DNA of 64,000 nucleotides, taken from the IMG/VR virus record IMGVR_UViG_3300029305_006397, one strand, 5' to 3'. This document shows, piece by piece, positions 2,552 to 41,908 of the stretch (position 1 is the stretch's first letter; every line of letters starts with the position of its first letter). The DNA comes from a virus. The notes below the pieces were generated by a model. That model was not told the DNA's origin and did no database searches. It worked only from the letters and a program-made list of their open reading frames with translations. The position numbers and the translations under genes were made by a program.

Positions 2552-2554
2552 ATG

Positions 2555-4061: not shown

Positions 4062-4174
4062 GCCTAGTATGGCATGCCGTTCGGCTTACGACGGCCATAA
4101 CGCCGGATTTAGGAAATCACCCAAGAAAGGAGGTGTACATATGAAACCGTATCTCACCCGGAATCAGATGTAAG

Positions 4175-4537: not shown

Positions 4538-5713
4538 TCAAGCTTCTGCTTTAAAATTATAGATGGGTTTAAAACGATCTACGATATCTACGGTTGGGCC
4601 AATGCAATTAATAATTTCCTGATAATCCTTGTAAACAAAAGGAGCTTCATCCAAGGTTGATTCATTAATGCATGTGGAATATATGCCATTCATAGTTTCG
4701 GCATATTCTTCTACGGTAAATATCTTCTTTGCCTGTGCGCGAGAATACAGGCGACCAGCTCCATGAGGAGCAGAACAATTCCATTCGGTATTGCCCTTTC
4801 CTCTGCAGATCAAAAGACCATCACGCATATTAAGAGGAATTACAAGAAACTGACCTTGCTGCGCAGAGATTGCGCCTTTGCGCAAAATCATTTCTTTCAC
4901 ATTGATATAATTATGTACACTATCAATGCAATAATCGATTTCACCACCCATAGCAGATACGATTGTATGCAACATTATCCATCTATTCTGTTCAGCAAAT
5001 TCCTGTAGAATTGCAACGTCATGAAGATAATCATCCATGTCCTGTCCGGTAAGATAACAAAGATCGGGATCAATTGCGATATGATGTTCAGACAGCCATT
5101 GCTGGCGCATAACAGGTTCAATAAACTGCAGTTGCTCCATGCGCAAATTATAGTTGTATTTCTTTATGCGATTTACGGCGAGGTTCTGGTAGTATTGAGC
5201 CACTTTCAGGCCGATATTGCGACTGCCTGAATGAACAGCGATATATCCATTTTCATACGCTTCGATGAAATGGTTCCCACCTCCAAGAGTTCCAAGGGTA
5301 CACTTTGCCCTTTCCTGGGTCGCTTTATCCAATTTGTCCCAGCACCGCAATTCTTCGAAATCTCGTTCCCATACCTTCTCAGTCGAATGTACATCCATAC
5401 CAAACGGAATACTAGATCGGATAGCGGCGTCCAATTCATCAAGGCGAGAATCAAAATCAATATTGGTTTGTACAAGTGATACACCACAACCGATATCTAC
5501 GCCAACCAAATTCGGGCATACCTTATCCGTGATATGCATAGTAGTACCGATTACACAGCCAGCTCCGGCATGGGCATCCGGCATGATTCGAATATGTGCG
5601 TCCTTACCCAAAGGAGAATCCGCCATCTTTTTAATTTGATCGATAGCTTGATCCTCAATTGTCTTAGCATAAATGACGACATCATCACCATGGGTAGACT
5701 TATATATTTTCAC
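4538..5713 (-). CDS. rtcB: RtcB-family RNA 3'-phosphate/2',3'-cyclic phosphate to 5'-OH ligase
   Basis: 391 aa with RtcB hallmarks: MPDAHAGAGCVIG, GGGNHFIE, HSGSRNIG, SAPHGAGR. GTG start follows AAGGTGA. Confidence 0.9.
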   Translation of the reverse strand: MKIYKSTHGDDVVIYAKTIEDQAIDQIKKMADSPLGKDAHIRIMPDAHAGAGCVIGTTMHITDKVCPNLVGVDIGCGVSLVQTNIDFDSRLDELDAAIRSSIPFGMDVHSTEKVWERDFEELRCWDKLDKATQERAKCTLGTLGGGNHFIEAYENGYIAVHSGSRNIGLKVAQYYQNLAVNRIKKYNYNLRMEQLQFIEPVMRQQWLSEHHIAIDPDLCYLTGQDMDDYLHDVAILQEFAEQNRWIMLHTIVSAMGGEIDYCIDSVHNYINVKEMILRKGAISAQQGQFLVIPLNMRDGLLICRGKGNTEWNCSAPHGAGRLYSRAQAKKIFTVEEYAETMNGIYSTCINESTLDEAPFVYKDYQEIINCIGPTVDIVDRFKPIYNFKAEA

Positions 5714-24890: not shown

Positions 24891-25484
24891 TTAGTATTCA
24901 AATCGTACTTCGTCTTTGTGGAAGTCTACATAGAAGTCAGCTTCATTGCCGCAGCCTTTAACACCACAAATCTGCTGGATAGCGCAGCAATCATCGAATT
25001 TTCCGATCATAAGTGCGCCGTACTTCTTCTTACAGTCAACGCACATTGCAGACCAACATCCACTTTCATCATTATTGAAATCATCAAAAACAACTTCTGT
25101 CTTATCTTCGCTAGTGAAGATCATGTGTCTTGCAATCGGATCGGGTTCATCCTCGGTCTGCTCACGGCGTTCATGAGCCTCTACGATATGATACAGGCCA
25201 GCATCCTTAACGGCCTTATGTACAGCTTCATTCCAGCCGAAGCTATCATCTTCCATGAGGTCGCGCTTGATCTTAGCGATGATATTGAGCTGATCGTCAT
25301 TGAACATGCCCTCATAGACAAGCTCCACATCTTCAATATCAACCTGCCGCTGATAACGCAGGTATGCTTCTCTCATTTCATCAAAGGTCAGGGTCAAAGA
25401 TACTTTATTTCCACTGAAGTCACGGTTGATCGTCAAATTTTCCATCCAGATCACCTTGTCCTTTCCCGTCCAGATATACTCCAT
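24891..25484 (-). CDS. hypothetical Cys-rich protein (about 185-197 aa; start uncertain)
   Basis: Track ORF. Candidate ATGs at 25484 and 25445 each have an SD. Confidence 0.55.
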   Translation of the reverse strand: MEYIWTGKDKVIWMENLTINRDFSGNKVSLTLTFDEMREAYLRYQRQVDIEDVELVYEGMFNDDQLNIIAKIKRDLMEDDSFGWNEAVHKAVKDAGLYHIVEAHERREQTEDEPDPIARHMIFTSEDKTEVVFDDFNNDESGCWSAMCVDCKKKYGALMIGKFDDCCAIQQICGVKGCGNEADFYVDFHKDEVRFEY

Positions 25485-25875
25485 TCTTAGCTTCCTGCTC
25501 ACGCTCCCACTTTCGCTGTTCTTCCCGGACTTCCCATACATGGTCAGACAGCTCTTTAATTACGATCTCCACAGCGCCCTCTGCACCATTGCTTCTGAAC
25601 CATGCGCGAACATTATCTTTCGTAGTGCTGATATTCGGAAACTCATACCATTCAAGGTAGAATTTAATGGTATTCAGCAAGGTATCCCATGCAATAACCT
25701 CCGGCTTCATGCGAAGATTCAGCATACGCTTGTAGGTTTTCTGATCGTTATCCATCATCAGGATAATCTCGTCGATAAAATCGGAGGTGTTGATTCCTCC
25801 GCCCTGTAATCCCCAACGCTCATTGAGGACTTCGTTGATCTTTTGTTGCTTGTTCGCAAGATGTTTAGCTATCAT
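25420..25875 (-). CDS. hypothetical protein (151 aa)
   Basis: Track ORF. TGGAGGA SD. Confidence 0.65.
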   Translation of the reverse strand: MIAKHLANKQQKINEVLNERWGLQGGGINTSDFIDEIILMMDNDQKTYKRMLNLRMKPEVIAWDTLLNTIKFYLEWYEFPNISTTKDNVRAWFRSNGAEGAVEIVIKELSDHVWEVREEQRKWEREQEAKNGVYLDGKGQGDLDGKFDDQP

Positions 25876-26240
25876 TCGTAATCCTCCATTTTTCGATCTC
25901 TGTTGGGCTTGCCAACGTATTTTCCTTTCAAACGCAGAATAAAACCATGGAGTCCGGTTACAGCGTTGCTATGAGAAAACATGTTGGTATTGGGATAGTA
26001 GAACAGATTACTTTCTTCTACGTCGAACATATACATGTTTGCAAAAATTGCACGTTCGATTTCCATTTGAGTAAATGGCGTAGCAAAAATGTACCGAGAA
26101 CCAATGCTGCTTGCCAGATCGAATCCGGCTACCAGACGATTGCTTAAACGATCATGGGAAATGTAGATGGGTTTTCCGTCTGCGTGATATTCACAAAAGT
26201 CAGAAAATCCGCTGATATAAGGGATGTATTCATGCTCCAT
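25872..26240 (-). CDS. hypothetical protein (122 aa)
   Basis: Track ORF. TAGGAGA SD. Confidence 0.6.
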   Translation of the reverse strand: MEHEYIPYISGFSDFCEYHADGKPIYISHDRLSNRLVAGFDLASSIGSRYIFATPFTQMEIERAIFANMYMFDVEESNLFYYPNTNMFSHSNAVTGLHGFILRLKGKYVGKPNRDRKMEDYE

Positions 26241-26249
26241 ATTGATCTC

Positions 26250-26639
26250 CTATTCCAGTTCATTCACAAGCTCAACGAGTGCGCCGTAGGTATTTTCACA
26301 CACCATGCCGCACATGTAGTTATGGATTTCAGTAATCCACTGGTATACAAATTCGTCATCATCATCTTCATACTGGCAATCTTCAAACCAATGCTTCTTA
26401 GTAAAGGTTCTGAATTTTTCCATGTTCCGGGTAATGAGGTCAGCCCACTTACATACAGCAGTGACATCAGAAGCATCGAATTTTTCCACTTCGACCTTCT
26501 TGATGATCTCCATGCAGAACCTATCGTAGTTCTCCTTGAAGGGTTCGGGGATGTAGCAGACGGTTACTTCGGCATCGTACACGGTATCGTAGGTATCAAA
26601 ATCGTCCTGGGAAATTGCCACGAGTTCATACAAAGTCAT
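26250..26639 (-). CDS. hypothetical acidic protein (129 aa)
   Basis: ATG follows the conserved leader AAAGATAGGAGGAAG. Confidence 0.6.
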   Translation of the reverse strand: MTLYELVAISQDDFDTYDTVYDAEVTVCYIPEPFKENYDRFCMEIIKKVEVEKFDASDVTAVCKWADLITRNMEKFRTFTKKHWFEDCQYEDDDDEFVYQWITEIHNYMCGMVCENTYGALVELVNELE

Positions 26640-26884
26640 AAGATTCTTCCTCCTATCTTTTGATAACGGATTCATGGGAGCGTTAGCGATACACCTTTAT
26701 AACCGGATGGGCAAGGCCGCTATTCTGTGATTCTTAATCTACTCTTCAGGTTAAACCCTTATGTTACCATCGGTTCCCAATCATTTAAGGCCATCCCAGG
26801 TCTTGATTCGCCTCCGTCTATCTTTCAGCGCACCCACTACTTTAGATATGTGGTGTGTAGCTTTAACCAGCCGAAGCTGGCCTA

Positions 26885-27169
26885 TCAGCGTTTGCGCTCA
26901 TAAGGTTCGTACCCTTCCATGTCCCATTTTCCATCGAACAACTCTCCGTTAAGCCATCCTTCGGAGTCGAAGTAGTTGACGCGCAGCCAACCATTTTCCT
27001 GATAGGTTTTGACAATAATTTCGTCCGGGCGGACACTCATTGTAACCAACTCTCCGTTTTCATTGTGGCCGATAAAATCAGAGTCAGAGTCACCATACTC
27101 TGCCATAATCTGTTTGCGAACCTCGACTTCGCCAAATCGTGCGGACAGTTCATTGGGAATGCTTTTCAT
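26885..27169 (-). CDS. hypothetical protein (94 aa)
   Basis: AAGGAGG before the internal ATG. Confidence 0.55.
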   Translation of the reverse strand: MKSIPNELSARFGEVEVRKQIMAEYGDSDSDFIGHNENGELVTMSVRPDEIIVKTYQENGWLRVNYFDSEGWLNGELFDGKWDMEGYEPYERKR

Positions 27170-27455
27170 AAGAACCTCCTTGTTTTTCCATCTCGGCAAT
27201 CATTGCAGCTTTCATCATGCTTTTAGCCGTTTCGTTAATAACGCTTAAGACACGATCTCCATACAAGTAATAGTAGTCAAACCGATCAAAGCTCTTATGG
27301 TATTCGCCCATCGGTTCGACAAGCTCTCCATCCTTGTTTTTTATTGTGCCGAAGCTGCATAGGAACCGATTGTCATTTATCCAATAGCCGACCAAACTTC
27401 CATCAAACGCCCTCCCATCTGCGCTGGTTACGAGTGCGCCAGCGTACAAATTCAC
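27150..27455 (-). CDS. hypothetical protein (up to 101 aa; GTG start uncertain)
   Basis: Track ORF. The 5' end overlaps a small TM ORF in another frame. Confidence 0.45.
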   Translation of the reverse strand: MNLYAGALVTSADGRAFDGSLVGYWINDNRFLCSFGTIKNKDGELVEPMGEYHKSFDRFDYYYLYGDRVLSVINETAKSMMKAAMIAEMEKQGGSYEKHSQ

Positions 27456-27567
27456 GGTGACGCTTGATTCTGTTATAGTGTTTAACGACCTTTTTCCATC
27501 CGTACATTACCGCCTCGGAAATTCCAACGGCAATGCTCAGGCTTCCCATGAGGACGATAATGCTCAT
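27403..27567 (-). CDS. possible small membrane protein (54 aa)
   Basis: Not in the track. AGGAGG SD plus ATG. MSIIVLMGSLSIAVGISEAVMYGW followed by a basic tail. Confidence 0.35.
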   Translation of the reverse strand: MSIIVLMGSLSIAVGISEAVMYGWKKVVKHYNRIKRHREFVRWRTRNQRRWEGV

Positions 27568-27582
27568 TTGATTTACCTCCTG

Positions 27583-27846
27583 TTATTCTTCTTCGTACCT
27601 CTCTGCCAATTCATCGGCAGCGCAAGCATATACATCATCGGCATCTCTTGCCCAAAGTTCATGATTGATAGCATACAAGAGTTCCTTGCACAGATCGACA
27701 AGCTCAGACTTGCTCAGTTCATGCCCATAATTTGCAAGTGCATCAAACAGGCAATCCGGGCAATCTCTCAGACCTTCAATAATGCTCTGCATCGTCAGGG
27801 TCTTAGAATTTTCCATCTGCATACCTTCCTTCTTTTCTTTTAGCAT
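27583..27846 (-). CDS. hypothetical acidic protein (77-87 aa)
   Basis: Track ORF. GAAGGAAGG SD favors an ATG near 27816. Confidence 0.55.
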   Translation of the reverse strand: MLKEKKEGMQMENSKTLTMQSIIEGLRDCPDCLFDALANYGHELSKSELVDLCKELLYAINHELWARDADDVYACAADELAERYEEE

Positions 27847-27871
27847 ATCGGATACTTTGGATTTTCCGATG

Positions 27872-27908
27872 TAGCATTAAAGAATCAGGAGAGGCTTTCG
27901 CCTCTCCC
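27872..27908 (-). terminator. intrinsic terminator
   Basis: Minus-sense GGAGAGGC-GAAA-GCCTCTCC then TGATTCTTTAAT, about 25 nt after the stop at 27933. Confidence 0.55.
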
Positions 27909-27932
27909 TATCTCCCATCTGCGTTTATGCTG

Positions 27933-28280
27933 TTAGTCACCGCCGACTGCGCCAACCACCAAACAATCGTATTCTTCCGGCAGGTCATAGTCCCAATCAA
28001 GCTGGGCTTCAACGTACAAAACCTTTTCAACGTACAGGATTTCGCCAAACTGACAGAGGAAATCTTTGGCCTGTTCTTCATACCGGGCATCACAGGTTAC
28101 AAATACGCTGTTCGTTCCGGCAAGATTTTCCAGCTTAAAAAGCTCCTCATTGTCGCGCACGTTATTGAAGATCGCAAGGAAATCTCTTGCATACTTGTTC
28201 AGGTCTGCGCTCAGTTCGACCTTAATCTGCACGGCATCCTTCTTCTCCGTATAAAACTTCATCTTCATGTGATTTTCCAT
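27933..28280 (-). CDS. hypothetical protein (115 aa)
   Basis: Track ORF. AAAGAAAGG before the ATG. Lies downstream of hammerhead a. Confidence 0.6.
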   Translation of the reverse strand: MENHMKMKFYTEKKDAVQIKVELSADLNKYARDFLAIFNNVRDNEELFKLENLAGTNSVFVTCDARYEEQAKDFLCQFGEILYVEKVLYVEAQLDWDYDLPEEYDCLVVGAVGGD

Positions 28281-28306
28281 CCTTTCTTTTCTTGCAGGTG
28301 TGGCTT

Positions 28307-28396
28307 CCTACGACACAAGCGGAAGGAAAGATAGGAAGGAAGAAAACCTTCCGCTTGTCATTTCGGCTGGTTGCCGTCCAGCTCTCGTCAGGTAGG
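28307..28396 (-). ncRNA. type-I hammerhead ribozyme (HH-a)
   Basis: Minus-sense CCTAC-CUGACGAG-[GCTGG/CCAGC]-CGAAA-[12-bp stem III]-GUC/GTAGG. All core nucleotides are present and stem I is CCTAC/GTAGG. Predicted cut is between 28312 and 28311. Confidence 0.75.
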
Positions 28397-28594
28397 TGTG
28401 GTTAATTTGAATGATTTGGTAGTCAATGCTGCCAGCTTTTGTTCGCAAGCGGTGTAGCTACCTCTATAAATGGTTTTCCAGTTATAACGGCATCTGCCGC
28501 CAACAGTGTAGAATCGTCTTTCTTTGAGTTCCCATACAGGCTTCAGGTCAAAGCCAATCGTTTCAGAAATTACATATCTTGCTTTGTTAGCCAT
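28388..28594 (-). CDS. hypothetical protein (68 aa)
   Basis: Track ORF. GGAGGC SD. Its UGA stop is the UGA of the hammerhead CUGA core. Confidence 0.6.
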   Translation of the reverse strand: MANKARYVISETIGFDLKPVWELKERRFYTVGGRCRYNWKTIYRGSYTACEQKLAALTTKSFKLTTPT

Positions 28595-28602
28595 GTTGCC
28601 TC

Positions 28603-28794
28603 CTACTTAATCGCAATGCGTTTAGAATTGTTCTCCAAGACAGCTTCAATTTTCCGTTTGACATGCAGCATGTTTTCTTTTACATGATTTGCAAGGGCTT
28701 CCATACCCTCTGTAGGATTTTCCATGCTATCTGCTTCATGCTGCAATGCGTTCATAATCCATCTAAGCTCGTTATGAGTTAAGGTCTGCATCAT
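28603..28794 (-). CDS. hypothetical protein (63 aa)
   Basis: ATGATG follows AAGAGGGTG. The upstream part of the 141-aa track ORF covers ribozyme HH-b and another gene's frame. Confidence 0.55.
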   Translation of the reverse strand: MMQTLTHNELRWIMNALQHEADSMENPTEGMEALANHVKENMLHVKRKIEAVLENNSKRIAIK

Positions 28795-28830
28795 TTGTAG
28801 ACACCCTCTTTCTTTTCTATATGGTGATTT

Positions 28831-28897
28831 TCCACGACACAGCCGGAATTTTCCGACTATGTTTCGACCGGGCATCACCCGGTTCTCGTCAGGTGGA
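28831..28897 (-). ncRNA. type-I hammerhead ribozyme (HH-b)
   Basis: TCCAC-CUGACGAG-[ACCGGG/CCCGGT]-CGAAAC-[10-bp stem III, GGAAAAUUCC apex]-GUC/GTGGA. Cut is between 28836 and 28835. Confidence 0.8.
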
Positions 28898-28900
28898 TTG

Positions 28901-29062
28901 TTACTTGAGTTCCCATTTTTCCATCCACGGCTCTCCTTGCCGATCATACTTATCTGCGTACATTCGATCAAGGGCTTCCTGCGCTTTCTTTTCCGATGAA
29001 TAGATTTCTCTGATTCCTTCGTCACCATAGCAGCCGGACATGATAACGTAAACGTACTTCAT
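28901..29062 (-). CDS. small ORF (53 aa)
   Basis: Not in the track. AGGAGG 5 nt before the ATG. Its TAA stop is 3 nt before HH-b. Confidence 0.45.
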   Translation of the reverse strand: MKYVYVIMSGCYGDEGIREIYSSEKKAQEALDRMYADKYDRQGEPWMEKWELK

Positions 29063-29071
29063 ACATACCTC

Positions 29072-29287
29072 CTAACCATCATTCCATGCGTAATCGTACC
29101 AGAGGGAAATCACATCGTTTTCCGGCTCAAAAGGCGTATCATCAAACGACAGGGCATTCAGACCTTCATCCTTAAGCCGCTGCATTGCCATCGTTTCCAG
29201 CTCCTCGTTGGATTTTCCGACTGCATCTTCGTCGTCAATGTATACCTTATAGAAACGCTTTACCTCAGCCATGATAGCTACTGCCAT
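29072..29287 (-). CDS. hypothetical acidic protein (71 aa)
   Basis: Track ORF. Conserved leader GGAAAGATAGGAGGAAA. Confidence 0.6.
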   Translation of the reverse strand: MAVAIMAEVKRFYKVYIDDEDAVGKSNEELETMAMQRLKDEGLNALSFDDTPFEPENDVISLWYDYAWNDG

Positions 29288-29383
29288 AAGTGTTTCCTCC
29301 TATCTTTCCTTATGCGTTTGGCTTTAGGGGCTTGTGACCTTATGCCTTGCCGCATTAACAGGGCTTATGCCCTGCCACTCTGC

Positions 29384-29569
29384 TTAATCTCGATTGGAAA
29401 GCTCCGTGTGATAGATATGCACACTCTGAAGGCGTCTGCTTCCAAATTTCCGTCGAAATTCCTCTTTCGCATCTTTCATGTTTGCCTTGCTACCGTTTCG
29501 ATGATCGCTTACATACTCAAATTCTCCGTAATCGTGACCATCATCATAAAGCGCAATGTAGTTTTTCAT
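29384..29569 (-). CDS. hypothetical protein (61 aa)
   Basis: Track ORF. AGGAGGC SD. Confidence 0.55.
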   Translation of the reverse strand: MKNYIALYDDGHDYGEFEYVSDHRNGSKANMKDAKEEFRRKFGSRRLQSVHIYHTELSNRD

Positions 29570-29580
29570 GCCGCCTCCTG

Positions 29581-29778
29581 TTAATCCATAGTGTAGTCAT
29601 TGATTCTACAAAATTCCGACCAGTCTCCGCCAAGTCGCCGGATAAGCTCCCTTTCGATCTTGACGCGCTCTTGCGGATAACGCTTGTTCTTCGGGTAGAG
29701 GATTTCCTGCGCAACAATGATTCCATAGGTGCTTACCAAATCTTCATGCGAATAATCCATGTACTTGTTTTTCCGCAT
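29581..29778 (-). CDS. hypothetical protein (65 aa)
   Basis: Track ORF, translationally coupled to its neighbors. Confidence 0.55.
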   Translation of the reverse strand: MRKNKYMDYSHEDLVSTYGIIVAQEILYPKNKRYPQERVKIERELIRRLGGDWSEFCRINDYTMD

Positions 29779-29781
29779 GGT

Positions 29782-30027
29782 TTAACCCTCCATCATGCAG
29801 CCCATTTCAAGCTGTACACGGTGATTGAAATCTTCCATCGCAGCCTTAAGGTCATTCAGGAAGTAATGACCGTGACAATAGGATTTTCCGTTCATACAAA
29901 ACCATGTAATCCACATGATTCCCTGACTTGTTTCAGTTTTTGCCAGAACAACTTCGCCCTCAATGACAGGCTCCGCATGGATAATCTCACAATTTTCCGA
30001 GTAGTTTTTGTTGTAGCGCCTTTCCAT
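29782..30027 (-). CDS. hypothetical protein (81 aa)
   Basis: Track ORF. Conserved leader GGAAAAGATAGGAGGAAA. Confidence 0.6.
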   Translation of the reverse strand: MERRYNKNYSENCEIIHAEPVIEGEVVLAKTETSQGIMWITWFCMNGKSYCHGHYFLNDLKAAMEDFNHRVQLEMGCMMEG

Positions 30028-30082
30028 GTATGTTTCCTCCTATCTTTTCCTTATGGTTTCCATGGATATTTCCATGGGGTTT

Positions 30083-30150
30083 CCCACGACGCTCTCAGGA
30101 TTTTCCATCAAGCGTTTCGGTTGCTAACCGGGCAGCCATCATCAGGTGGG
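30083..30150 (-). ncRNA. type-I hammerhead ribozyme (HH-c)
   Basis: CCCAC-CUGAUGA-U-[GGCUGC..GCAACC]-GAAAC-[stem III with GGAAAAUCC apex]-GUC/GTGGG. The stem II closing pair is noncanonical. Cut is between 30088 and 30087. Confidence 0.65.
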
Positions 30151-30151
30151 G

Positions 30152-30355
30152 TTAAAAAACGAATCCGGCATAAACCATCTTGTTTCCGTCCAGCATCCTC
30201 CATGCGTTAGCATCGTCCCATGCCGTACAACAGTAACGTTTTTCCGACCTGTCATATTCGCCGCGGATATAGACCCGATTTGCAGACTCTTTCAACTTGA
30301 AAAATTCTCCATGCTTCAGGTCTTTCAGCTTGTACATTCCTGCATCTCTTTCCAT
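30152..30355 (-). CDS. hypothetical protein (67 aa)
   Basis: Track ORF. Its stop is 1 nt before HH-c. Confidence 0.55.
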   Translation of the reverse strand: MERDAGMYKLKDLKHGEFFKLKESANRVYIRGEYDRSEKRYCCTAWDDANAWRMLDGNKMVYAGFVF

Positions 30356-30356
30356 G

Positions 30357-30551
30357 TTAGGCTCCCTTCTTAATCCGCTTTACTTCGATATGATCGTAGC
30401 CTTTATCCGGGTGAAGAAAATTCCGAATACCATAGCTTCGTGCTTCCTGCTCATTAGTTGCTTCGATCTTGTGATATTCCAAGGCCATGCCAGATTTTCC
30501 GACACCAATTCGATAGAGATATTTCCTTGCCATTGTGCTTCCTCCGTTCAT
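30357..30551 (-). CDS. hypothetical protein (64 aa)
   Basis: Track ORF. ATGA overlap with the upstream small ORF. Confidence 0.55.
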   Translation of the reverse strand: MNGGSTMARKYLYRIGVGKSGMALEYHKIEATNEQEARSYGIRNFLHPDKGYDHIEVKRIKKGA

Positions 30552-30721
30552 TTACCGATTGCCTCGGCGTAGTATTCGTCGAAATTTCCGAAAACTTCCA
30601 GATACACCATGCCACCATTGCCCCGATAAGGCCGGATATTTTTCATGATGAATCGATATTCCGTGAACATCAATGCAAGCACACAAAGGGCAATACATGC
30701 TCCAATCGCCAGCTTTTTCAT
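30548..30721 (-). CDS. small membrane/secreted protein (57 aa)
   Basis: Not in the track. Conserved leader GATAGGAGGAAAATC plus ATG. MKKLAIGACIALCVLALMF signal-like N-terminus. Confidence 0.45.
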   Translation of the reverse strand: MKKLAIGACIALCVLALMFTEYRFIMKNIRPYRGNGGMVYLEVFGNFDEYYAEAIGK

Positions 30722-30757
30722 GATTTTCCTCCTATCTTTTCCATGTGGTTTTGACTT

Positions 30758-30823
30758 CCCACGACAGGCCAGCTCAAGGCCAGCCTGTTTCGGCTCGTTG
30801 TCAACTCGCCATCGTCAGGTGGG
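30758..30823 (-). ncRNA. type-I hammerhead ribozyme (HH-d)
   Basis: CCCAC-CUGACGA-U-[GGCGAG..CGAGCC]-GAAAC-[9-bp stem III CAGGCUGGC/GCUGGCCUG]-GUC/GTGGG. Cut is between 30763 and 30762. Confidence 0.7.
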
Positions 30824-30828
30824 TATGC

Positions 30829-31290
30829 TTACCATTCCTCCAATTCTTCCTCCAGATCGGCGATTTCTTCCTCCAGATCATCGGCATCCGACTGGTAATT
30901 GCTTCTCCAGATTGCCATTCTCAGGCTTTCGATTTCTTCCTCGTCCAGCTCATTCATTCCGGCAAGCTCACGATTGGAATTGATTTCGTCGATTTGTTCC
31001 TCGACTTCTTCTTCGTAACTTTCCTTGAGTTCTTCCAGCTCGTACTGTTTTTCTTCCAGTTCGGCGCGGATAACTTTCTCGGAACGGATTCCAACCCATT
31101 CATACACGGATTCCGGCTCAAACCAAAGCAGATCATTTAGACCAGTTTCGGTCATTCCATCCGGGTACAAATCCTCCAGAACAGCCTCCAGCTGCGCACA
31201 TTTTCCGGCGTTGCGTACACGATCAAGGGTATCGACAGCTCCAGACCATGCCTCGAAAGTTTCCAAATCAAGCTCGTATGTGATTTTCAT
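30829..31290 (-). CDS. hypothetical very acidic protein (153 aa)
   Basis: Track ORF. SD GGAAGGGG. Confidence 0.65.
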   Translation of the reverse strand: MKITYELDLETFEAWSGAVDTLDRVRNAGKCAQLEAVLEDLYPDGMTETGLNDLLWFEPESVYEWVGIRSEKVIRAELEEKQYELEELKESYEEEVEEQIDEINSNRELAGMNELDEEEIESLRMAIWRSNYQSDADDLEEEIADLEEELEEW

Positions 31291-31397
31291 TGTAAAATTC
31301 CCCTTCCTATCTTTCCAAATGATTGACAGGAAGGGGCAAACTATGATATATTTCTGTATAGGAAGGGCGGAAGGAAATTCCCTCCACCCCCATGCGG

Positions 31398-31481
31398 TTA
31401 GATTTCGTCCGGGTTATCCGTGGCGCGAATAATCCCATCAGACCACATCCAGCCGTATTTAGTCCGATACAGGGCTTTCAT
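31398..31481 (-). CDS. possible micro-ORF (27 aa)
   Basis: AGGAAGGAGGA SD plus ATG directly after the bidirectional terminator. Confidence 0.25.
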   Translation of the reverse strand: MKALYRTKYGWMWSDGIIRATDNPDEI

Positions 31482-31505
31482 GGCGGTTGTCCTCCTTCCT
31501 ATCTT

Positions 31506-31555
31506 TTTATAAAAAGCGGTCTTGTGTTGGTAGCACAAGGCCGTTTTTATCTTTT
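31506..31555. terminator. bidirectional intrinsic terminator
   Basis: 10-bp stem CGGTCTTGTG/CACAAGGCCG (one mismatch), flanked by an A-run on one side and TTTTTATCTTTT on the other. Confidence 0.6.
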
Positions 31556-31766
31556 AAAGCCGTTTTTTCTACGATACGGCAAAACGCTTGACCCATGCTA
31601 TATGGGAATGAATCGGGGTTCAAGGGATTGCCCCGGTCGCCTCCAGCCGTGTTCTTACATGCCGCTGGACACAGGTAGCCTGCATAATCATCTCATTCTC
31701 CGGCTACAGAGTTTTGCGCGGTTTCGATAGACGCACATTTATTGGCGGTTGCTATCGGGAATGGTT

Positions 31767-31828
31767 AACCCAGACCAGCCCATGTGGGCGTGGTTTCGTC
31801 GCAATTTTCAGCGACTCGTCAGTGGGTT
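31767..31828 (-). ncRNA. type-I hammerhead ribozyme (HH-e)
   Basis: AACCCA-CUGACGAG-[UCGC/GCGA]-CGAAAC-[stem III]-GUC/TGGGTT. The UGA of the core is the stop codon of 31819..32016. Cut is between 31773 and 31772. Confidence 0.8.
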
Positions 31829-32016
31829 TCAGGGTATTCCATTGCTATGGCTCTGACGGCTTCAATATCCGTCAACATTCCTCTTTCATATACGCGCAAA
31901 ATATTTTCTATGCGTGTTTTTCTTAATTCTTTGATAGACGTTAACATTAACGTATTTTCTGCATCTGTCTGAAGCATATCTTGCGCAAACTCATGCACAT
32001 AGCGTTTTCTTCTCAT
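31819..32016 (-). CDS. hypothetical protein (65 aa)
   Basis: Track ORF. SD GAAGGGAAGG. Its stop is embedded in HH-e. Confidence 0.6.
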   Translation of the reverse strand: MRRKRYVHEFAQDMLQTDAENTLMLTSIKELRKTRIENILRVYERGMLTDIEAVRAIAMEYPETH

Positions 32017-32038
32017 GTTTATACCTTCCCTTCTCTTT

Positions 32039-32107
32039 CCATACCCACGCCCCGGCAGGGCGTGACGCTCACGGCTTAAATGGCTTTTTATAGTCGCCGT
32101 GACGACT
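32039..32107 (-). ncRNA. pistol ribozyme (Pistol-f)
   Basis: AGUCG-UCACGG-CGACU hairpin. The loop is complementary to the downstream CCGUGA (pseudoknot). Then GCG, P3 UCACGCCC/GGGCGUGG, G/U, AUGG pairing with CCAU. Same spacing as the env25 pistol as I recall it. Cut is between 32044 and 32043. Confidence 0.75.
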
Positions 32108-32418
32108 CAGACAATTATGCAGCGTTTGAACGGATTTTCGCAGGGGTCGCAACCGAAACCGAAATTTTCTCCGTATATATCGATATACTGAAGTCCAGCG
32201 AATTTGCCGTTCTGAATGGTTTTTAACTCCATTGTAGCGCGGCGCATAGCCTGTTTTGCCTGTTTAATGGTTACGTCGTCGATATTGTAGAATCTGTTTA
32301 GCTTGTTTTGAATTTTATTCAAGAAATTCATTGCAAGGTCATTTGTAACATTCTTTTTATCGGACTCCATGAAACAGTCAAACCCGTATGCACGAAGATA
32401 AAAACCCTGTTTTTTCAT
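32107..32418 (-). CDS. hypothetical protein (103 aa)
   Basis: Track ORF. SD GGGAGGG. The last base of its TGA stop (A, 32107) is the first base of pistol P1. Confidence 0.6.
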   Translation of the reverse strand: MKKQGFYLRAYGFDCFMESDKKNVTNDLAMNFLNKIQNKLNRFYNIDDVTIKQAKQAMRRATMELKTIQNGKFAGLQYIDIYGENFGFGCDPCENPFKRCIIV

Positions 32419-32441
32419 TGTATAACCCTCCCTATCTATTT

Positions 32442-32507
32442 TTGAACCCGCCCCAAACGGGGCGACGCTTTGGGCCTAATCAACTATTTAAAGTCGCCCA
32501 AACGACT
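32442..32507 (-). ncRNA. pistol ribozyme (Pistol-g)
   Basis: AGUCG-UUUGGG-CGACU-UUAAAUAGUUGAUUAGG-CCCAAA-GCG-UCGCCCC-GUUU-GGGGCGG-G/U-UCAA. The linker UUAAAUAGUUG is identical to the env25 pistol as I recall it. The pseudoknot and P2 covary with Pistol-f. Cut is between 32447 and 32446. Confidence 0.8.
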
Positions 32508-32763
32508 AAACGCGCATTACATTGTCAAGATAAATGCGCATTGCACCCTTACGAATATATGCCCGACCTGCCGTCGAATAGTGGACTTTATGACGATGAA
32601 AACCCACATATCCTTCAGGGTTAACCCATGCCGCAATATAATCGCATTCGAATTTATCGCCGTCGTCGGGTTCCCAAAGTGCAACGCCGAAACAGTTGGA
32701 AAAATGGCAAACGCCAACCGGGGCAATATTAGAATAACGCTTGTAAAGTGCTACATTTTTCAT
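32506..32763 (-). CDS. hypothetical protein (85 aa)
   Basis: Track ORF. SD GAGGGAAGG. Its TAG stop overlaps pistol P1. Confidence 0.6.
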   Translation of the reverse strand: MKNVALYKRYSNIAPVGVCHFSNCFGVALWEPDDGDKFECDYIAAWVNPEGYVGFHRHKVHYSTAGRAYIRKGAMRIYLDNVMRV

Positions 32764-32797
32764 TGTGTTTTACCTTCCCTCTTTTTTTTAGGTTATT

Positions 32798-32852
32798 CAC
32801 CCGACGCCCGGCAGGGCGTTTCGTCTTAATTTTCAAAGACTCTTCAGGGGCG
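32798..32852 (-). ncRNA. type-I hammerhead ribozyme (HH-h)
   Basis: CGCCC-CUGAAGAG-[UC..GA]-CGAAAC-[GCCC-UGCC-GGGC]-GUC/GGGTG. Cut is between 32803 and 32802. Confidence 0.8.
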
Positions 32853-32855
32853 TTA

Positions 32856-33176
32856 TTATCTCAAGTTGTCGTTATATGCAATATCCCTGTTTTTGATTGC
32901 AATTTCGATTCGCTTTTTGCTAACGTCGCCGCCGAAAATGTGACGGGCGTATTCGCGCAAAAACTCATAGAGATATTTTGCGGTTGTATTGGAGTAACAC
33001 CAATTCCGACCCAAAGTCAACGCCGCCGCGCCCTGCGCGTCATAATCAACGATTGCAATAACGCTGTCATAAGACTGGAAAATAACAGCATTATTGGAGT
33101 GAATGATAAACTGGTTTGCAACGGGGCGACCACTTCGGGGGGATACCATGTTCCTAACACTTGCATATTTCATCAT
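32856..33176 (-). CDS. hypothetical protein (106 aa), first gene of the ribozyme-punctuated operon
   Basis: Track ORF. SD GGAAGGTG. The 18-nt motif lies about 25 nt upstream. Confidence 0.6.
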   Translation of the reverse strand: MMKYASVRNMVSPRSGRPVANQFIIHSNNAVIFQSYDSVIAIVDYDAQGAAALTLGRNWCYSNTTAKYLYEFLREYARHIFGGDVSKKRIEIAIKNRDIAYNDNLR

Positions 33177-33203
33177 GTTTTACACCTTCCTATTCTTTTC
33201 TTG

Positions 33204-33221
33204 TTTGCAAGTAATGTTTAT
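33204..33221 (-). promoter_or_regulatory. conserved 18-nt motif copy E (ATAAACATTACTTGCAAA)
   Basis: Lies upstream of the first gene of the leftward operon. Confidence 0.5.
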
Positions 33222-33664
33222 TACTATGCATAAACCCGACTTTCGACGGGCTTTAGTCGCCTGTTATAATCTCGTTTGAATGTCAAGCCCTAAGCAGCTT
33301 GCAGGGACTTTCGGCGTATGCGGTACTTGTTTGCATTCTGCCGGATTTGTGATTCTTTCTCGATTCTAACAAGCGTCTAAAGCCTATTGAGTAGACTTTA
33401 GTTAGAAAAGATAGAAAAGATAAAGGTTTGAGGGCTTTTAATGAGGCTGTAAAAACAGCGTCAAGACTTAGGATTATACGCGCCCTTATTAGGGGATTTT
33501 TCGACGGCCTGCACCTTTGCGGTATAGGTTTTTAATTAACCATTGCAGCCCCGGACTTGCGACCATTCGCCCTGCGACCTTTGCCGCTTTTTTCGCCTTT
33601 TTGAGACGGGGTTCAATCGTGCGCGTAGTATCCTTTGCGCCCTTGAATTTATTCAATTTTCAAG

Positions 33665-33693
33665 TTGCCTTTTGCGTACAAACGTGGTATAAT
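33665..33693 (+). promoter_or_regulatory. sigma70-like promoter with extended -10 (TTGCCT-17-TGgTATAAT)
   Basis: Read directly. The -10 is embedded in the palindrome CGTGGTATAATAACCACG. A GC-rich untranslated tract follows. Confidence 0.45.
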
Positions 33694-33786
33694 AACCACG
33701 TTCGGCACGGCCTCGGCTTCCCTCTCAACCTTGCAGGGCTTGCGTCCTCTCGGGGTTCGTGGTTCGGCCTCGGGCTTGTGTCGTTC

Positions 33787-33814
33787 GGGTTCCGGTTCCG
33801 GGGTTCCGGTTCCG
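33787..33814. repeat. perfect tandem duplication of 14-mer GGGTTCCGGTTCCG
   Basis: Two exact copies: 33787-33800 and 33801-33814. Confidence 0.8.
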
Positions 33815-33844
33815 TTGCCGTCCTGACGTGTATTATGTTACACC

Positions 33845-33858
33845 ATATTGCGCAATAC
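33845..33858. promoter_or_regulatory. palindromic operator-like site ATATTGCGCAATAC
   Basis: Repeated at 33903-33916, upstream of the RHH-like gene. Confidence 0.45.
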
Positions 33859-33902
33859 GTCAACCCGTATTTTTAACCAAAAATATCAATTCGTATTTGT
33901 GT

Positions 33903-33916
33903 ATATTGCACAATAC
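33903..33916. promoter_or_regulatory. palindromic operator-like site ATATTGCACAATAC
   Basis: Second copy, 15 nt before the ATG at 33931. Confidence 0.45.
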
Positions 33917-33930
33917 ATTATAGGATTATT

Positions 33931-34149
33931 ATGTACGATAAAGATAAAGCGATAAAAAGACAAAACGATTTTAATAAATCGAATTATGATAGATTAAACA
34001 CGACTATACCGAAGGGACGCAAGGCCGATATAGTTGCATATTGCGATAGTATTGGAACCACGCCAAACGGCTTAATTAATGAATTGTTGCGGTTTGAATT
34101 GGGGTTTACACCTGAACAATGGAAGGAACGGGCGACGGCTGAAGAATAG
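33931..34149 (+). CDS. small RHH/Arc-like DNA-binding protein (72 aa)
   Basis: Track ORF. Paralog of 13282..13488 (NYDRLNTTIPKGRKADIVAYC...NGLINELL..ELG..PEQW). Confidence 0.55.
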   Translation: MYDKDKAIKRQNDFNKSNYDRLNTTIPKGRKADIVAYCDSIGTTPNGLINELLRFELGFTPEQWKERATAEE

Positions 34150-34254
34150 TAATACTGTATTTTTTGTTTAATGTTGCTATACTTTATAGCTAACCGTTTA
34201 CGGTTAATTATATGCGGTTAATTAACCGTGTTTGAAAATTGGGGCGAATTTTAG

Positions 34255-34278
34255 CGACGGCGCAAACCGTCGTTTTTT
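34255..34278 (+). terminator. intrinsic terminator
   Basis: CGACGG-CGCAAA-CCGTCG followed by TTTTTT. Confidence 0.55.
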
Positions 34279-34933
34279 GTTGTGCGCTGTTGGGCGTTTG
34301 GGGCTGTTTGCAAGGCCAGGGCGACTGTTACCGGGGGCGGCGGTTGCCGTGGGTTTGCTTGATTTTTGCGGCGGCGATAGCCCCCGGATTTATTCGACCA
34401 AAAAAGCGAAAAAATTAGCTAATATCGCATTTTAGGCGACAGCCCCGGCCCCTAGGGGTATTTTACACTTTTTTAACATTTTCGCGCGATCCGCCGTCTG
34501 GTGTCTGGTATATCTATGACATATTGATTTTTGAACCGCATTCCGATCCTAAAAATGCTGCAAGATCGCAATTCAAAATCCACTTTGATTTAATCGACGG
34601 TATACTTCAACGGTAGCAGCTTTTACTATTTTCAAAAAGCTATTGAAACTCAGTGTCTTTTTAGGTCAATTTAAATCACCCTCAAGCCTGGACTTTCATG
34701 ATTTCTACCTATAATACCTCTCCTCTTTTACCTGTCGCAAAATAAATAAGACGAATCAAAGTCAATCTGATTCATTGTAAAAACTATTGAGTTTCAGCAC
34801 TTATTTCAATAAATACAACCAGTCTTTTCGAATACAAATACTAAAATTTTCGACGGTAAACCGTTGTTCACTTTTCGTGTTATTTTGAAAAGCTCTGAAA
34901 TCTAATAGTTTTAAAGAATATTGTCATTTGATC

Positions 34934-40030: not shown

Positions 40031-40108
40031 ATGGAAGTAGTTTAAGGCAAAACAGCTGAAGGTACAAAACAAAAACGGAAGTTGAGGGTGCAAATCCCTC
40101 CTTCCATC
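40031..40108 (+). pseudogene. tRNA-like element lacking a recognizable anticodon arm
   Basis: Acceptor ATGGAAG/CTTCCAT. The D-arm GTTT-AAGGCA-AAAC is nearly identical to that of tRNA-Trp at 1510-1585. T-like arm GAGGG-TGCAAAT-CCCTC. The middle 29 nt do not pair. Confidence 0.35.
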
Positions 40109-40113
40109 CGTAT

Positions 40114-40191
40114 TGCGGAGTGGAGAAGCGGACTATCTCGCCAGCCTCATAAGCTGGAGATCGCTGGTTCGAATCCAGCCTCTCGCAACCA
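40114..40191 (+). tRNA. tRNA-Met-like (anticodon CAT) with one bulged nucleotide in the acceptor 3' strand
   Basis: D-arm GAGA/TCTC, arm CCAGC-CTCATAA-GCTGG, T-arm GCTGG-TTCGAAT-CCAGC. Acceptor TGCGGAG pairs with CTC(T)CGCA. Encoded ACCA. Confidence 0.6.
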
Positions 40192-40194
40192 CAT

Positions 40195-40269
40195 GTGGAG
40201 TTCGTATAATGGTTAGTACCTGAGATTTTCAATCTCAAAACAGGGGTTCAACTCCCCTACTCCTCACCA
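40195..40269 (+). tRNA. tRNA-Glu (anticodon TTC)
   Basis: Arm TGAGA-TTTTCAA-TCTCA, T-arm AGGGG-TTCAACT-CCCCT, encoded CCA. One acceptor mismatch. Confidence 0.8.
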
Positions 40270-40438
40270 GTTAGTTTTTTGCTGTAATGATCTTCGGACT
40301 TATGGCTTAAATCGCATGCTTCGGATTCCTTCGGGGCCGAGGCTTTATTTTGAAAAATTGTTCGCTAGTCAGTATGCGACTAATAAAATACTGATCAGAA
40401 ACTACCATCTGATTTCTTTTAAATCAGGTGGTTTATAT

Positions 40439-40515
40439 CAGGGTGTATATCAGTTTGGTAGATGGCCGCATTTGGGATGCGGAGGCCGCTGGTTCGAATC
40501 CAGTCACCTTGACCA
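40439..40515 (+). tRNA. tRNA-Pro (anticodon TGG)
   Basis: C1-G72 acceptor CAGGGTG/CACCTTG, arm CCGCA-TTTGGGA-TGCGG, T-loop GGTTCGAATCC, encoded CCA. Confidence 0.85.
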
Positions 40516-40557
40516 TGATCGTACTCAAGAATGCTACGGCGCTTGGGTCTATTTATA

Positions 40558-40584
40558 GGGTGGCGATGCCACCCTTTTATTTTT
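40558..40584 (+). terminator. intrinsic terminator inside the tRNA array
   Basis: GGGTGGC-GAT-GCCACCC followed by TTTTATTTTT. Confidence 0.6.
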
Positions 40585-40588
40585 ACAT

Positions 40589-40678
40589 GCTGATATGGCC
40601 GAGTCTGGCTTAAGGCGGTGGTCTTGAAAACCATTGGAGGTAACACTCACGGAGGTTCGAATCCTTCTATCAGCGCCA
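40589..40678 (+). tRNA. tRNA-Ser (anticodon TGA)
   Basis: Class II: acceptor GCTGATA/TATCAGC, loop CTTGAAA, long variable arm, encoded CCA. Confidence 0.85.
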
Positions 40679-40831
40679 GTATTAGCTCTCCTGCATAAAA
40701 ATGTGCTATTGATGACAGAAACAGGAGATAAGAGTCCCGCAAGTAGACACGCGGTTCAGTGCTCGTACAGGTGTTTTGTTGAGCAAGCAGTCTATTAAGA
40801 ATAAACACTGACAGCAGGAAAGACTGCATAT

Positions 40832-40923
40832 GGAGAGGTGGCTGAGTGGCTGAAAGCGGCACCCTGCTAAGATGTTTGCCCTGGTGACAGGGCACGAGAG
40901 TTCGAATCTCTCCCTCTTCGCCA
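40832..40923 (+). tRNA. tRNA-Ser (anticodon GCT)
   Basis: Class II: GGAGAGG acceptor, loop CTGCTAA, variable arm GCCCTGGTGACAGGGC, encoded CCA. Confidence 0.8.
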
Positions 40924-41094
40924 AACAAATGTGGTTCCGGTAGAGCCTGACGCATCAGTACCGACCTTGATGGAAAGGGTATCCCGTAGCTAAGACGAGT
41001 CCATAGGCGGGGATTTCTGCCACGTTGATTTAGCTCATCTGCCAAGTGCAGAAGGAGTTCCTGGATGTGTTACACAACTAGCGCATCCTGATTT

Positions 41095-41169
41095 GGTTCT
41101 ATAGTTTAGGGGCTAGAATGCCAGCCTGTCACGCTGGAGACACGGGTTCGATTCCCGTTAGAGCCGCCA
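41095..41169 (+). tRNA. tRNA-Asp (anticodon GTC)
   Basis: Arm CCAGC-CTGTCAC-GCTGG, T-loop GGTTCGATTCC, encoded CCA. Confidence 0.85.
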
Positions 41170-41228
41170 ATTTGCCTCACACGCCTCTTTGTCGTATGAC
41201 AAATGCGGACTAAGTGAGGTTTTTTCAT

Positions 41229-41304
41229 GGGGTTATAGCTCAGTTGGAAGAGCGCGTGCTTTGCAAGCATGAGGTCAAGGGTTCGAGACCCTTTAGCTCC
41301 ACCA
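41229..41304 (+). tRNA. tRNA-Ala (anticodon TGC)
   Basis: G3:U70 pair present, loop TTTGCAA, encoded CCA. Confidence 0.85.
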
Positions 41305-41306
41305 AT

Positions 41307-41378
41307 CGCCGGGTGGTGTAAATGTTAGCACCGCAGACTATGATTCTGCGAATAAAGGTTTAAATCCTTTTCCGGCGA
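41307..41378 (+). tRNA. tRNA with anticodon ATG (nominally His), no encoded CCA
   Basis: Acceptor CGCCGGG/TCCGGCG, D GTGT/GCAC, arm GCAGA-CTATGAT-TCTGC, T-arm AAAGG-TTTAAAT-CCTTT. A34 and the lack of a G-1 feature are atypical for His. Confidence 0.6.
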
Positions 41379-41711
41379 TTATGTTATCTATTTCCCAACA
41401 TACTGTCATGCGTGGGTGGAATAAGAAGAGACGGGCGTTTTCGGTCGGCATAAACCGAAGTTTGGCATTTGAGGTCAAATGAGTTTGATGAATGCAATCC
41501 CGTGCTGCTATGCGGTATTTGCAGGAGAACAACAGGGGTTTGCGTATAACCACAAGGCAGCTAGGTACAATCCGAAAGAAAAACGGTTATAAAGGGCGTC
41601 CCGCCACCTATATCCCAAGTGTGGAACGATAAAGCAGGTGTTTCGCTGCCTATAAATGCGAAATTTAATCAGCTCCGTGTTGGATATTTTGACATGCGGA
41701 GCATTTTATAT

Positions 41712-41787
41712 GGCATCATAGCTCAGTCGGTAGAGCAGCTGGCTGTTAACCAGCAGGTCAAGAGTTCGAGCCTCTTCGGTGCCTCCA
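41712..41787 (+). tRNA. tRNA-Asn (anticodon GTT)
   Basis: Arm GCTGG-CTGTTAA-CCAGC, T-loop AGTTCGAGCCT, encoded CCA. Confidence 0.85.
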
Positions 41788-41908
41788 CGGGTAGATAAGA
41801 TAACAAAACGCGCCACTACCCCAAGGCAGATACATACGCATTCGAGAAGCGCAATGGCTGCGATCAAATTGGCAGATGTGTAGGCGGCAGACTTAACTGT
41901 CTTTATTT

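Follow-up and report, generated by a model that had tools for sequence, protein, structure and literature searches.

Self-cleaving ribozyme motifs of three classes separate small genes in a leftward gene run of an uncultured phage

Results

A run of small genes punctuated by ribozyme motifs

The DNA studied here is a stretch of 64,000 nucleotides from IMG/VR virus record IMGVR_UViG_3300029305_006397 (the window, by which we mean this whole stretch), which comes from an uncultured gut or rumen phage. The phage genome is that of a tailed phage and encodes a terminase, a portal protein, an integrase, about 25 tRNAs and an RtcB ligase. Our subject is a leftward run of small genes, numbered g1 onwards, that extends from about 33.2 to 26.6 kb. 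An earlier note on this DNA had described eight self-cleaving ribozymes between these genes, six type-I hammerheads and two pistols. We scanned the whole window against Rfam and read the minus strand between 26000 and 33400. All eight elements were found where the note had placed them: both pistols pass the Rfam gathering score and all six hammerheads match a type-I descriptor. The count was nevertheless too low, because it lacked a type-P5 twister and a twister-like element that is present twice. At least nine, and probably eleven, self-cutting RNA motifs of three classes thus separate the small genes (Table 1). All eleven lie on the minus strand, the strand of the genes; the plus strand has none.

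The products of the run are small. Pfam and PHROG searches with ten of these proteins gave no Pfam match, and the PHROG matches were restricted to families of unknown function. The terminase had no relative among species-representative genomes, and neither a prophage nor a host was found by that route.

Table 1. Positions of the ribozyme motifs and of other features in the window. Cuts are predicted or candidate cleavage positions.
Feature	Positions	Strand	Details
Hammerhead A, type I	32798..32852	-	Stem I CGCCC/GGGUG; predicted cut 32803/32802; follows tandem TAA TAA of g1
Pistol	32442..32507	-	Rfam RF02679, 68.4 bits; predicted G/U cut 32447/32446
Pistol	32039..32107	-	Rfam RF02679, 67.9 bits; predicted cut 32044/32043
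Hammerhead B, type I	31767..31828	-	Stem I AACCCA/UGGGUU; predicted cut 31773/31772; descriptor and g4 translation
Terminator-like hairpin, bidirectional	31512..31548		17 pairs, T-runs on both strands; in the 285-nt spacer after hammerhead B
Anti-leader hairpin	31291..31340	-	CCCCUUCCUGUC pairs with g6 leader GAUAGGAAGGGG; 12 bp; minimum free energy fold of the spacer
Hammerhead C, type I	30758..30823	-	Extra U after A9; predicted cut 30763/30762; descriptor
Purine-rich leader with Shine-Dalgarno sequence, AAAGAUAGGAGG	30728..30739	-	Also 26649-26660, 29296-29307, 30036-30047
Leader AAAGAUAGGAGG, one mismatch	31303-31314, 31495-31506	-	
Hammerhead D, type I	30083..30150	-	Extra U after A9; predicted cut 30088/30087; descriptor
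Twister, type P5	29325..29384	-	Rfam RF02684, 50.9 bits (gathering 37.6), model positions 1-58; g12-g13 spacer
Hammerhead E, type I	28831..28897	-	Predicted cut 28836/28835; descriptor
Hammerhead F, type I	28307..28396	-	Predicted cut 28312/28311; bulge-tolerant descriptor; 20-nt CU-rich stem III loop
Twister-like copy 1	27842..27931	-	Model R1, 85.2 bits; starts 1 nt past g17 TAA; candidate U/A cut 27879/27878
Twister-like copy 2, divergent	26827..26898	-	Model R1, 46.1 bits, E 1.6e-7, match span 26909-26821; candidate cut 26865/26864
RtcB RNA ligase	4538..5713	-	phrog_1075, E 3e-127; adjoins tRNA array

The elements occupy a precise position with respect to the genes. From g1 to g19 (19 genes) the spacers are bimodal, with seven junctions of at most 15 nt and 11 of 87-337 nt. 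None of the seven short junctions contains a ribozyme, whereas 10 of the 11 long spacers open with a ribozyme or a twister variant that lies at or over the upstream stop codon; the spacer between g5 and g6 is the sole long one without a recognisable ribozyme. By prediction the motifs would cleave a polycistronic RNA where gene blocks meet, on the gene strand, but the pieces would hold one to three genes rather than the single genes proposed before, since the short junctions are ribozyme-free. The earlier description of each unit as lying between a stop codon and the next leader also needs adjustment. In hammerheads B and F, the UGA within the CUGA core doubles as the stop codon of g4 and g16, respectively. 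The stop of g2 (TAG) overlaps the first 2 nt of the pistol that follows it, the last base of the g3 stop (TGA) is the first nucleotide of the other pistol, and the stop of g12 (TAA) overlaps the first nucleotide of the twister. Twister-like copy 2 overlaps the final codons of g21, the stop of which (TGA) falls inside its internal loop GCUGAUAGG. After g1, g6, g9, g14 and g17, the element begins 1-5 nt beyond the stop. Downstream, the distance from the cut site to the next start codon is 27-70 nt, hammerhead B excepted.

The six hammerheads have complete cores and covarying stems

The hammerheads were identified with a descriptor that represents the textbook type-I consensus and was not derived from the window sequences. 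The strict version of this descriptor detected five of the six, against a mean of 0.08 matches in dinucleotide-shuffled windows. With bulges allowed, all six were detected on the minus strand, and the plus strand had no match (shuffles: mean 0.04, maximum 1). Another descriptor match, at 13659-13533, has very long loops and was treated as a chance match.

The core nucleotides C3 U4 G5 A6 N7 G8 A9 and G12 A13 A14, the A15.1-U16.1 pair and H17 (not G) are present in all six. Stem I is open and consists of 5-6 bp, and stems II and III each form a closed hairpin (folding energy -2.6 to -17.6 kcal/mol). Stem I had been called exactly complementary throughout, which holds except for one G.U wobble in that of hammerhead A. 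The cleavage positions that we recomputed were identical to those proposed before for six of six hammerheads, and the G-U junctions of the pistols also fall at the positions given for them. The additional U that hammerheads C and D carry between A9 and stem II is conserved in seven of seven members of this family across loci; an extra U at this place is tolerated in natural viroid hammerheads.

In homologues outside the window, the stems covary and the core does not change. In 15 relatives CUGA.GA and CGAAA are invariant, and each of the stem I versions CGCCC, AAUCCC, CCCAC, CCUAC, UACCA and UUCCAC is accompanied by a matching 3' strand. Orthologues of hammerhead A with compensatory changes in stems I and III are present in the cultured Agathobaculum phage AB434P2 (OP172633.1), where the element lies at 42214-42270 between two small genes, and in contigs L062 and L130; loop II of this family is UGAAAAUU. 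The hammerhead C family is also found after the g6 homologue in L062, L057 and L130, and hammerhead F has orthologues in L057, L062, L094, L098 and L130. The near-identical metagenomic copies L038-L045 (99.9% identity) are uninformative on constraint. Samples 3300018475 and 3300018494 also contain this phage.

Pistols, a type-P5 twister and a twister-like family not recognised by Rfam

Both pistols are full-length matches to RF02679 (gathering 34.5, E about 1e-10), taking in P1, P2, P3 and the pseudoknot of the P1 loop, and in each a GU, the dinucleotide at which pistols cleave (PMC6154101), precedes the 3' strand of P2. In the type-P5 twister, pseudoknots PK2 (GUG/CAC) and PK1 (GC/GC) can be read in the sequence. 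Twisters cleave at a U-A step (PMC6154101), and from the known cleavage site of the family this element is predicted to be cut at the U/A step after P1, at 29357/29356.

The spacer at 27932-27817 resembles this twister, with GCA-GA.GG, a hairpin and then UUAA-UGC. A 136-nt search found no Rfam family on the strand of twister-like copy 1, and no twister model matched even at E = 10. Close counterparts of this copy were present in L062, L128 and L130. We built a covariance model, R1, from four twister-like copies; after two pattern scans, the final search with this model gave 25 copies in 16 sources, 24 of them distinct, with up to four copies per locus. Members include L062 6432-6527, L098 2719-2812 and 3480-3593, four copies in L136 and three in L137. 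A match of R1 in the window at 61200-61313(+), 23.7 bits, has neither P2 nor UAA and was treated as chance.

In the alignment of this family, 98.0% of 602 cells pair, against 25-39% when the partners are slid. Changes on both sides occur in 21 of 26 pairs, and the covariation score is 0.656 against 0.190, a value of 0.656 being reached by 0 of 500 shuffles. Copy 2 and the copies in L098, L136 and L137 have compensatory changes in common. In the fold, a closing P5 is followed by P2, P1 as a hairpin, and P4, the loop of which forms two pseudoknots. UAA is invariant, and the U-A step lies in an internal loop. Every member pairs in PK2, as UGGG/UCCA, UAGG/UCUA or UGAG/UUCA, with G-C to A-U swaps at two pairs (in 7 and 3 sequences); the PK2 columns lie outside the model used for alignment. 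PK1 is invariantly AC/GU, a version also present in otherwise canonical twisters of L062, L136 and L056. These pseudoknots agree with what has been published for twisters, a PK1 of 2 bp and a PK2 of 3 bp, the latter stacked between P1 and P2 (PMC11662667; see also PMC6154101).

Compared with Twister P5 (RF02684), the elements share P1, P2, P4, the closing P5, the internal loop with UAA and GA..., the 2-bp and 3-4-bp pseudoknots with the P4 loop, and AA-G within this loop. They differ in the first PK2 pair, U-A instead of the G-C of the canonical twisters parsed at these loci, in PK1 (AC/GU instead of GC/GC), and in P4, which has 6 bp and a 12-nt loop instead of about 2 bp and 8 nt. They also lie below every Rfam twister threshold; Rfam Twister-P5 gave a weak match to one relative (23.5 bits against 37.6). 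The sequence differences that we mapped sit in the pseudoknots and are compensatory, but the family consensus has a shorter P4 and L4. Rfam probably misses these elements because covariance models cannot represent pseudoknots, so that compensatory changes are read as mutations, and because of the longer P4 and loop. By its alignment, the family looks like a diverged, uncurated subtype of the type-P5 twister with re-coded pseudoknots.

Ribozyme classes are interchanged at orthologous junctions

Most of the contigs with a g6 homologue of about 50% identity (L001-L037 and most of L048-L127) contain no ribozymes. These distant relatives without an array served as an empirical negative control and gave 0 descriptor matches. 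One-strand arrays of a density like that of the window were found in L062, L130, L094, L098, L057, L133, L136 and L137, for instance at least eight elements in 7.4 kb (L062), seven in 4.2 kb (L137), seven in 4.3 kb (L130) and five in 3 kb (L133). Some array-bearing contigs carry metagenome-assembled genome labels of Clostridia (Lachnospiraceae, Ruminococcus, Anaerofustis).

Homologues of g1, g2 and g6 allowed junctions to be equated between loci. At the junction of g1 and g2, the window has a hammerhead and L062 a pistol (62.6 bits). After g2, the arrangement is reversed: the window has a pistol and L062 a hammerhead. Upstream of g6, where the window has no recognisable ribozyme, L098 has a pistol (59.6 bits), and L062 and L094 have a hammerhead. 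Such interchange points to selection on cleavage at a position and not on a particular RNA fold; read from sequence comparison, it indicates that what selection keeps is the cleavage.

Canonical type-P1 twisters were also seen in these relatives. Those at L098 1337-1391 and 1844-1915 have E-values of 1.6e-11 and 1.8e-7, and others lie in L062 at about 3745-3835, 4545-4610, 5320-5395 and 7250-7320; all are below the Rfam gathering score of 67.2. The curated models thus undercount ribozymes in these phages: the six hammerheads, a number of significant twisters and an entire twister subtype stay below threshold.

Leaders and product ends

A conserved leader had been proposed to follow every unit. 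The exact sequence AAAGATAGGAGG is present at only four junctions and, with one mismatch, at two more, and the other junctions have looser purine-rich variants. The leader AAAGAUAGGAGG is enriched, with 16 matches at two or fewer mismatches against 5.5 expected, and none of 100 shuffles reached 16.

Once cut, 13 of the 16 distinct hammerheads would leave a 3' product whose first 4-5 nt are able to pair again with a tract located 3-14 nt downstream; 4.6 were expected from shuffles and 0 of 2000 reached 13, a statistic that is inflated by the relatedness of orthologues. The re-pairing tracts covary (GUGG/CCAC, GUAG/CUAC, GGGU/ACCU, GGGA/UUCC). A hairpin at this 5' end would favour product release. 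Stem-loops at the 5' end of Gram-positive mRNAs protect against 5'-exonuclease, and by analogy the hairpin would do the same here.

Members of the hammerhead F family have a CU-rich stem III loop of 20-34 nt that contains (U)UCCUAC (28325-28352 in the window; orthologues at L062 2940-2975, L098 1735-1780 and L094 4335-4375). In five of five members, this loop shows complementarity to the initial 8-10 nt of the 3' product that its own ribozyme would release (loop shuffles: P = 0.001-0.056). The window loop is moreover the exact antisense of the operon leader, at 28327-28338(+), and would pair with the g5 and g6 leaders at -32.6 and -27.8 kcal/mol. We rejected an anti-Shine-Dalgarno role as a feature of the family, complementarity to the adjacent ribosome-binding site not being conserved (P = 0.06-0.95). 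A competing fold that modulates cleavage is one possibility for this loop. The ribosome-binding site of g6 is itself predicted, from the fold of its spacer, to be sequestered in the anti-leader hairpin.

Some spacers have further features. The 285-nt non-coding stretch 31482-31766 (-) begins at the hammerhead B cut site, contains the terminator-like hairpin and could be a ribozyme-released small RNA. The best promoter-like site in the region, at 31323-31352 (+), is TTGACA-18-TATATT with a TG (11/12) and faces the plus side of the terminator hairpin at 31548; the antisense RNA made from it would measure about 190 nt and cover g5, a gene of 27 codons, together with the g5 leader. The g21-g22 spacer, 26640-26820 (-), contains a leader-like GAAAGAUAGACGGAGG followed only by an 11-codon open reading frame, and a hammerhead-like CUGAAGAG...AGAAU without the GAAA core; it may be a decayed cassette. 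The spacers at 33400-33177, 31766-31482, 31397-31291 and 26820-26640 had no conserved counterpart among the related loci compared.

RtcB and the tRNA arrays

The window encodes an RtcB RNA ligase. A third pistol, at 3617-3686 (-) with 61.6 bits, lies between two tRNA genes of the leftward tRNA array, which by analogy suggests ribozyme processing of a tRNA precursor. A RAGATH-36 RNA at 839-1000 (-), 73.2 bits, and a drum RNA at 41483-41590 (+), 62.1 bits, lie in or beside the tRNA arrays at 586-4250 (minus) and 40031-41982 (plus).

Discussion

From the motifs, their placement, conservation and covariation, and the interchange of classes at orthologous junctions, we infer that the run is co-transcribed and cleaved in vivo, with consequences for the stability and translation of the products. 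Serial co-transcriptional self-cleavage probably splits the transcript into blocks that comprise one to three genes and a leader of their own, and would so insulate neighbouring blocks from one another. The element at the 3' end of each block of one to three small genes would fold and cut itself during transcription. The upstream mRNA would then terminate in the compactly folded ribozyme and carry a 2',3'-cyclic phosphate. The downstream mRNA would have a 5'-OH at its start, in most cases a short 5'-terminal hairpin, and a strong purine-rich leader that includes a Shine-Dalgarno sequence. Neighbouring blocks would thus be uncoupled, having their own ends, stability and translation start independently of the sequence upstream, and this uncoupling would allow gene cassettes to be exchanged between phages.

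Several observations weigh against this reading. Cleavage and the transcripts of this phage are here predictions from sequence. The run contains a strong bidirectional terminator-like hairpin, the top-scoring site of this kind in the region, and the promoter scan was no better than shuffles (27 sites against 24.5). With this hairpin at 31512-31548 inside the run, a single uninterrupted transcript, which the earlier note had assumed, is not established, and its designation of the mRNA as early is unsupported. The 5'-OH ends could also act in the opposite direction. As is known from the Bacillus glmS ribozyme, 5'-OH ends in Firmicutes are substrates of RNase J1, and cleavage could therefore destabilise the downstream mRNAs instead of insulating them. 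Ribosomes that end on stop codons embedded in ribozymes could unfold them. No stem I/stem II tertiary contact was seen by eye with the short open stem I, and with a stem I of 5-6 bp and no such contact, rates at physiological Mg2+ are uncertain. The twister-like copies, which differ from the twister consensus at several positions and do not reach the curated score, are by sequence candidate ribozymes only.

The Rfam results for the hammerheads belong to the same side of the balance. Both pistols passed the check with covariance models that had been suggested, but in a permissive scan of 25000-34500 no hammerhead model reached its gathering score. The best scores were 25.8 bits for RAGATH-1-hammerhead (cut-off 56.3), 19.1 for Hammerhead_3 (48.5) and 18.1 for Hammerhead_1 (34), with matches on two of the six hammerhead sites only; hammerhead A accounts for the 25.8 bits of RAGATH-1-HH and the 18.1 bits of Hammerhead_1. 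The shortfall probably reflects the long, variable stems II and III and the training sets of the models. These sub-threshold scores of 18-26 bits would also suit chance matches or inactive, decayed relics. This explanation is largely refuted by the number of matches, six where 0.04 were expected, by their restriction to a single strand and to the slot that Rfam-confirmed ribozymes also occupy, and by orthologues with invariant cores and compensatory stems; chance as such is effectively excluded.

Cleavage might instead serve mainly to set decay or timing, with the 5'-OH exposing the mRNA to 5'-exonuclease or with switchable ribozymes, so that block lifetimes or temporal order differ. Pairing of the F-family loop with the start of its own 3' product, predicted in five of five members, would compete with stem I, the window loop is an exact anti-leader, and the g6 ribosome-binding site is masked by the anti-leader hairpin. 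Differing stabilities or translation efficiencies are the outcome suggested in a 2019 review (PMC6765202), and regulated cleavage of phage hammerheads was raised by Perreault et al. in 2011 (PMC3088659). Most elements show no obvious alternative fold, however, the 5'-terminal hairpins and strong leaders suggest protection and not exposure, and the family does not conserve a match between the loop and the adjacent ribosome-binding site; we regard decay or timing as an unlikely main function. A different fate for the products is suggested by RtcB, which joins 2',3'-cyclic-phosphate and 5'-OH ends (PMC8782182). Both types of end would be present on every internal segment between ribozymes, so RtcB is a possible partner of the ribozyme products, and a system that circularises, re-joins or splices these segments, giving exonuclease-resistant circular mRNAs or RNA-level shuffling of cassettes, is conceivable. 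Perreault et al. considered circular or spliced products, looked for them and found none (PMC3088659). The ligase is encoded 22 kb from the run, next to a large tRNA array, a setting ordinarily explained by repair of tRNAs against host anticodon nucleases, and we saw no conserved pairing between segment ends, which leaves RNA joining very doubtful. Finally, the elements could be mainly DNA-level cassette boundaries, their ribozyme and leader homologies serving recombination that shuffles accessory genes and RNA cleavage being secondary. Gene content between conserved ribozymes does vary among relatives (L062 is without g3, g4, the 285-nt spacer and g5 between its g2 and g6 homologues), and families such as F hold near-identical stem sequences across loci. 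Covarying stems with invariant catalytic cores nevertheless imply selection on RNA structure and not on DNA homology, and the same junction can be occupied by different classes, so that a role chiefly in DNA is hard to credit.

Since 2011 it has been an open question why self-cleaving ribozymes are clustered in phages and prophages, and we found no later paper that settles it. The earlier note overstated its novelty in this respect: the role of such clusters is still undefined (PMC6765202), but both the clusters and a processing role had already been put forward in 2011 (PMC3088659). In the literature we found no description of class interchange at the level of junctions, of overlap between ribozymes and stop codons, of the 5'-hairpin regularity or of the twister subtype. 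Four testable regularities emerge: the elements lie on or over stop codons, the classes are interchangeable, the 3' product has a 5' hairpin before a shared leader, and junctions of at most 15 nt are ribozyme-free. Together they speak for a function in insulation or processing, and they suggest rules by which RNA spanning several genes may be processed in nature. As a novelty, the uncurated twister subtype, at two junctions of the window and in up to four copies per locus in Clostridia-associated phage contigs, is better supported than RNA joining by RtcB.

If the blocks are insulated in this way, the array would by analogy be the natural equivalent of synthetic insulators based on ribozymes, such as RiboJ, reportedly introduced by Lou et al. 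in 2012. In both cases a self-cleaving ribozyme before a ribosome-binding site strips the upstream context, and a hairpin after the cut keeps the site exposed. RiboJ, however, is engineered and placed 5' of a single gene, whereas the elements described here are natural, serial and located at the 3' ends of coding regions. HDV-like theta ribozymes near tRNAs of gut phages (PMC10879173) are likewise small ribozymes in phage RNA-processing contexts, as is the pistol within the tRNA array of the window, but they belong to another class and their role is 3' processing of tRNAs, not of an mRNA operon. The association of hammerheads, twisters and pistols with each other and with phage genes was, in a summary of the work of Weinberg et al. 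(2015), the basis for the discovery of the pistol (PMC4604425). The gene neighbourhoods from which pistol, hatchet and twister-sister were discovered and the RAGATH motifs resemble the present locus in that classes co-occur near each other and near phage genes, mostly in Firmicutes, and the window has a RAGATH-36 RNA; the association reported there is statistical, whereas here one array and its relatives are resolved junction by junction.

The closest known arrangement is that of Perreault et al. (2011), who found several hammerheads on either side of single genes or of short blocks of genes in prophages, showed that phage transcripts with three hammerheads cleave in vitro and in E. coli, and proposed that long transcripts are processed into gene- or operon-length mRNAs (PMC3088659). 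There, as here, hammerheads on the same strand bracket genes of unknown or accessory function. The array of the window is an unusually dense example of this known arrangement, among the densest found: about 6 kb hold eleven elements from three classes, where triple arrangements were tested before, and the array adds the overlap with stop codons, a shared leader after most cuts, and the swapping of classes at orthologous junctions.

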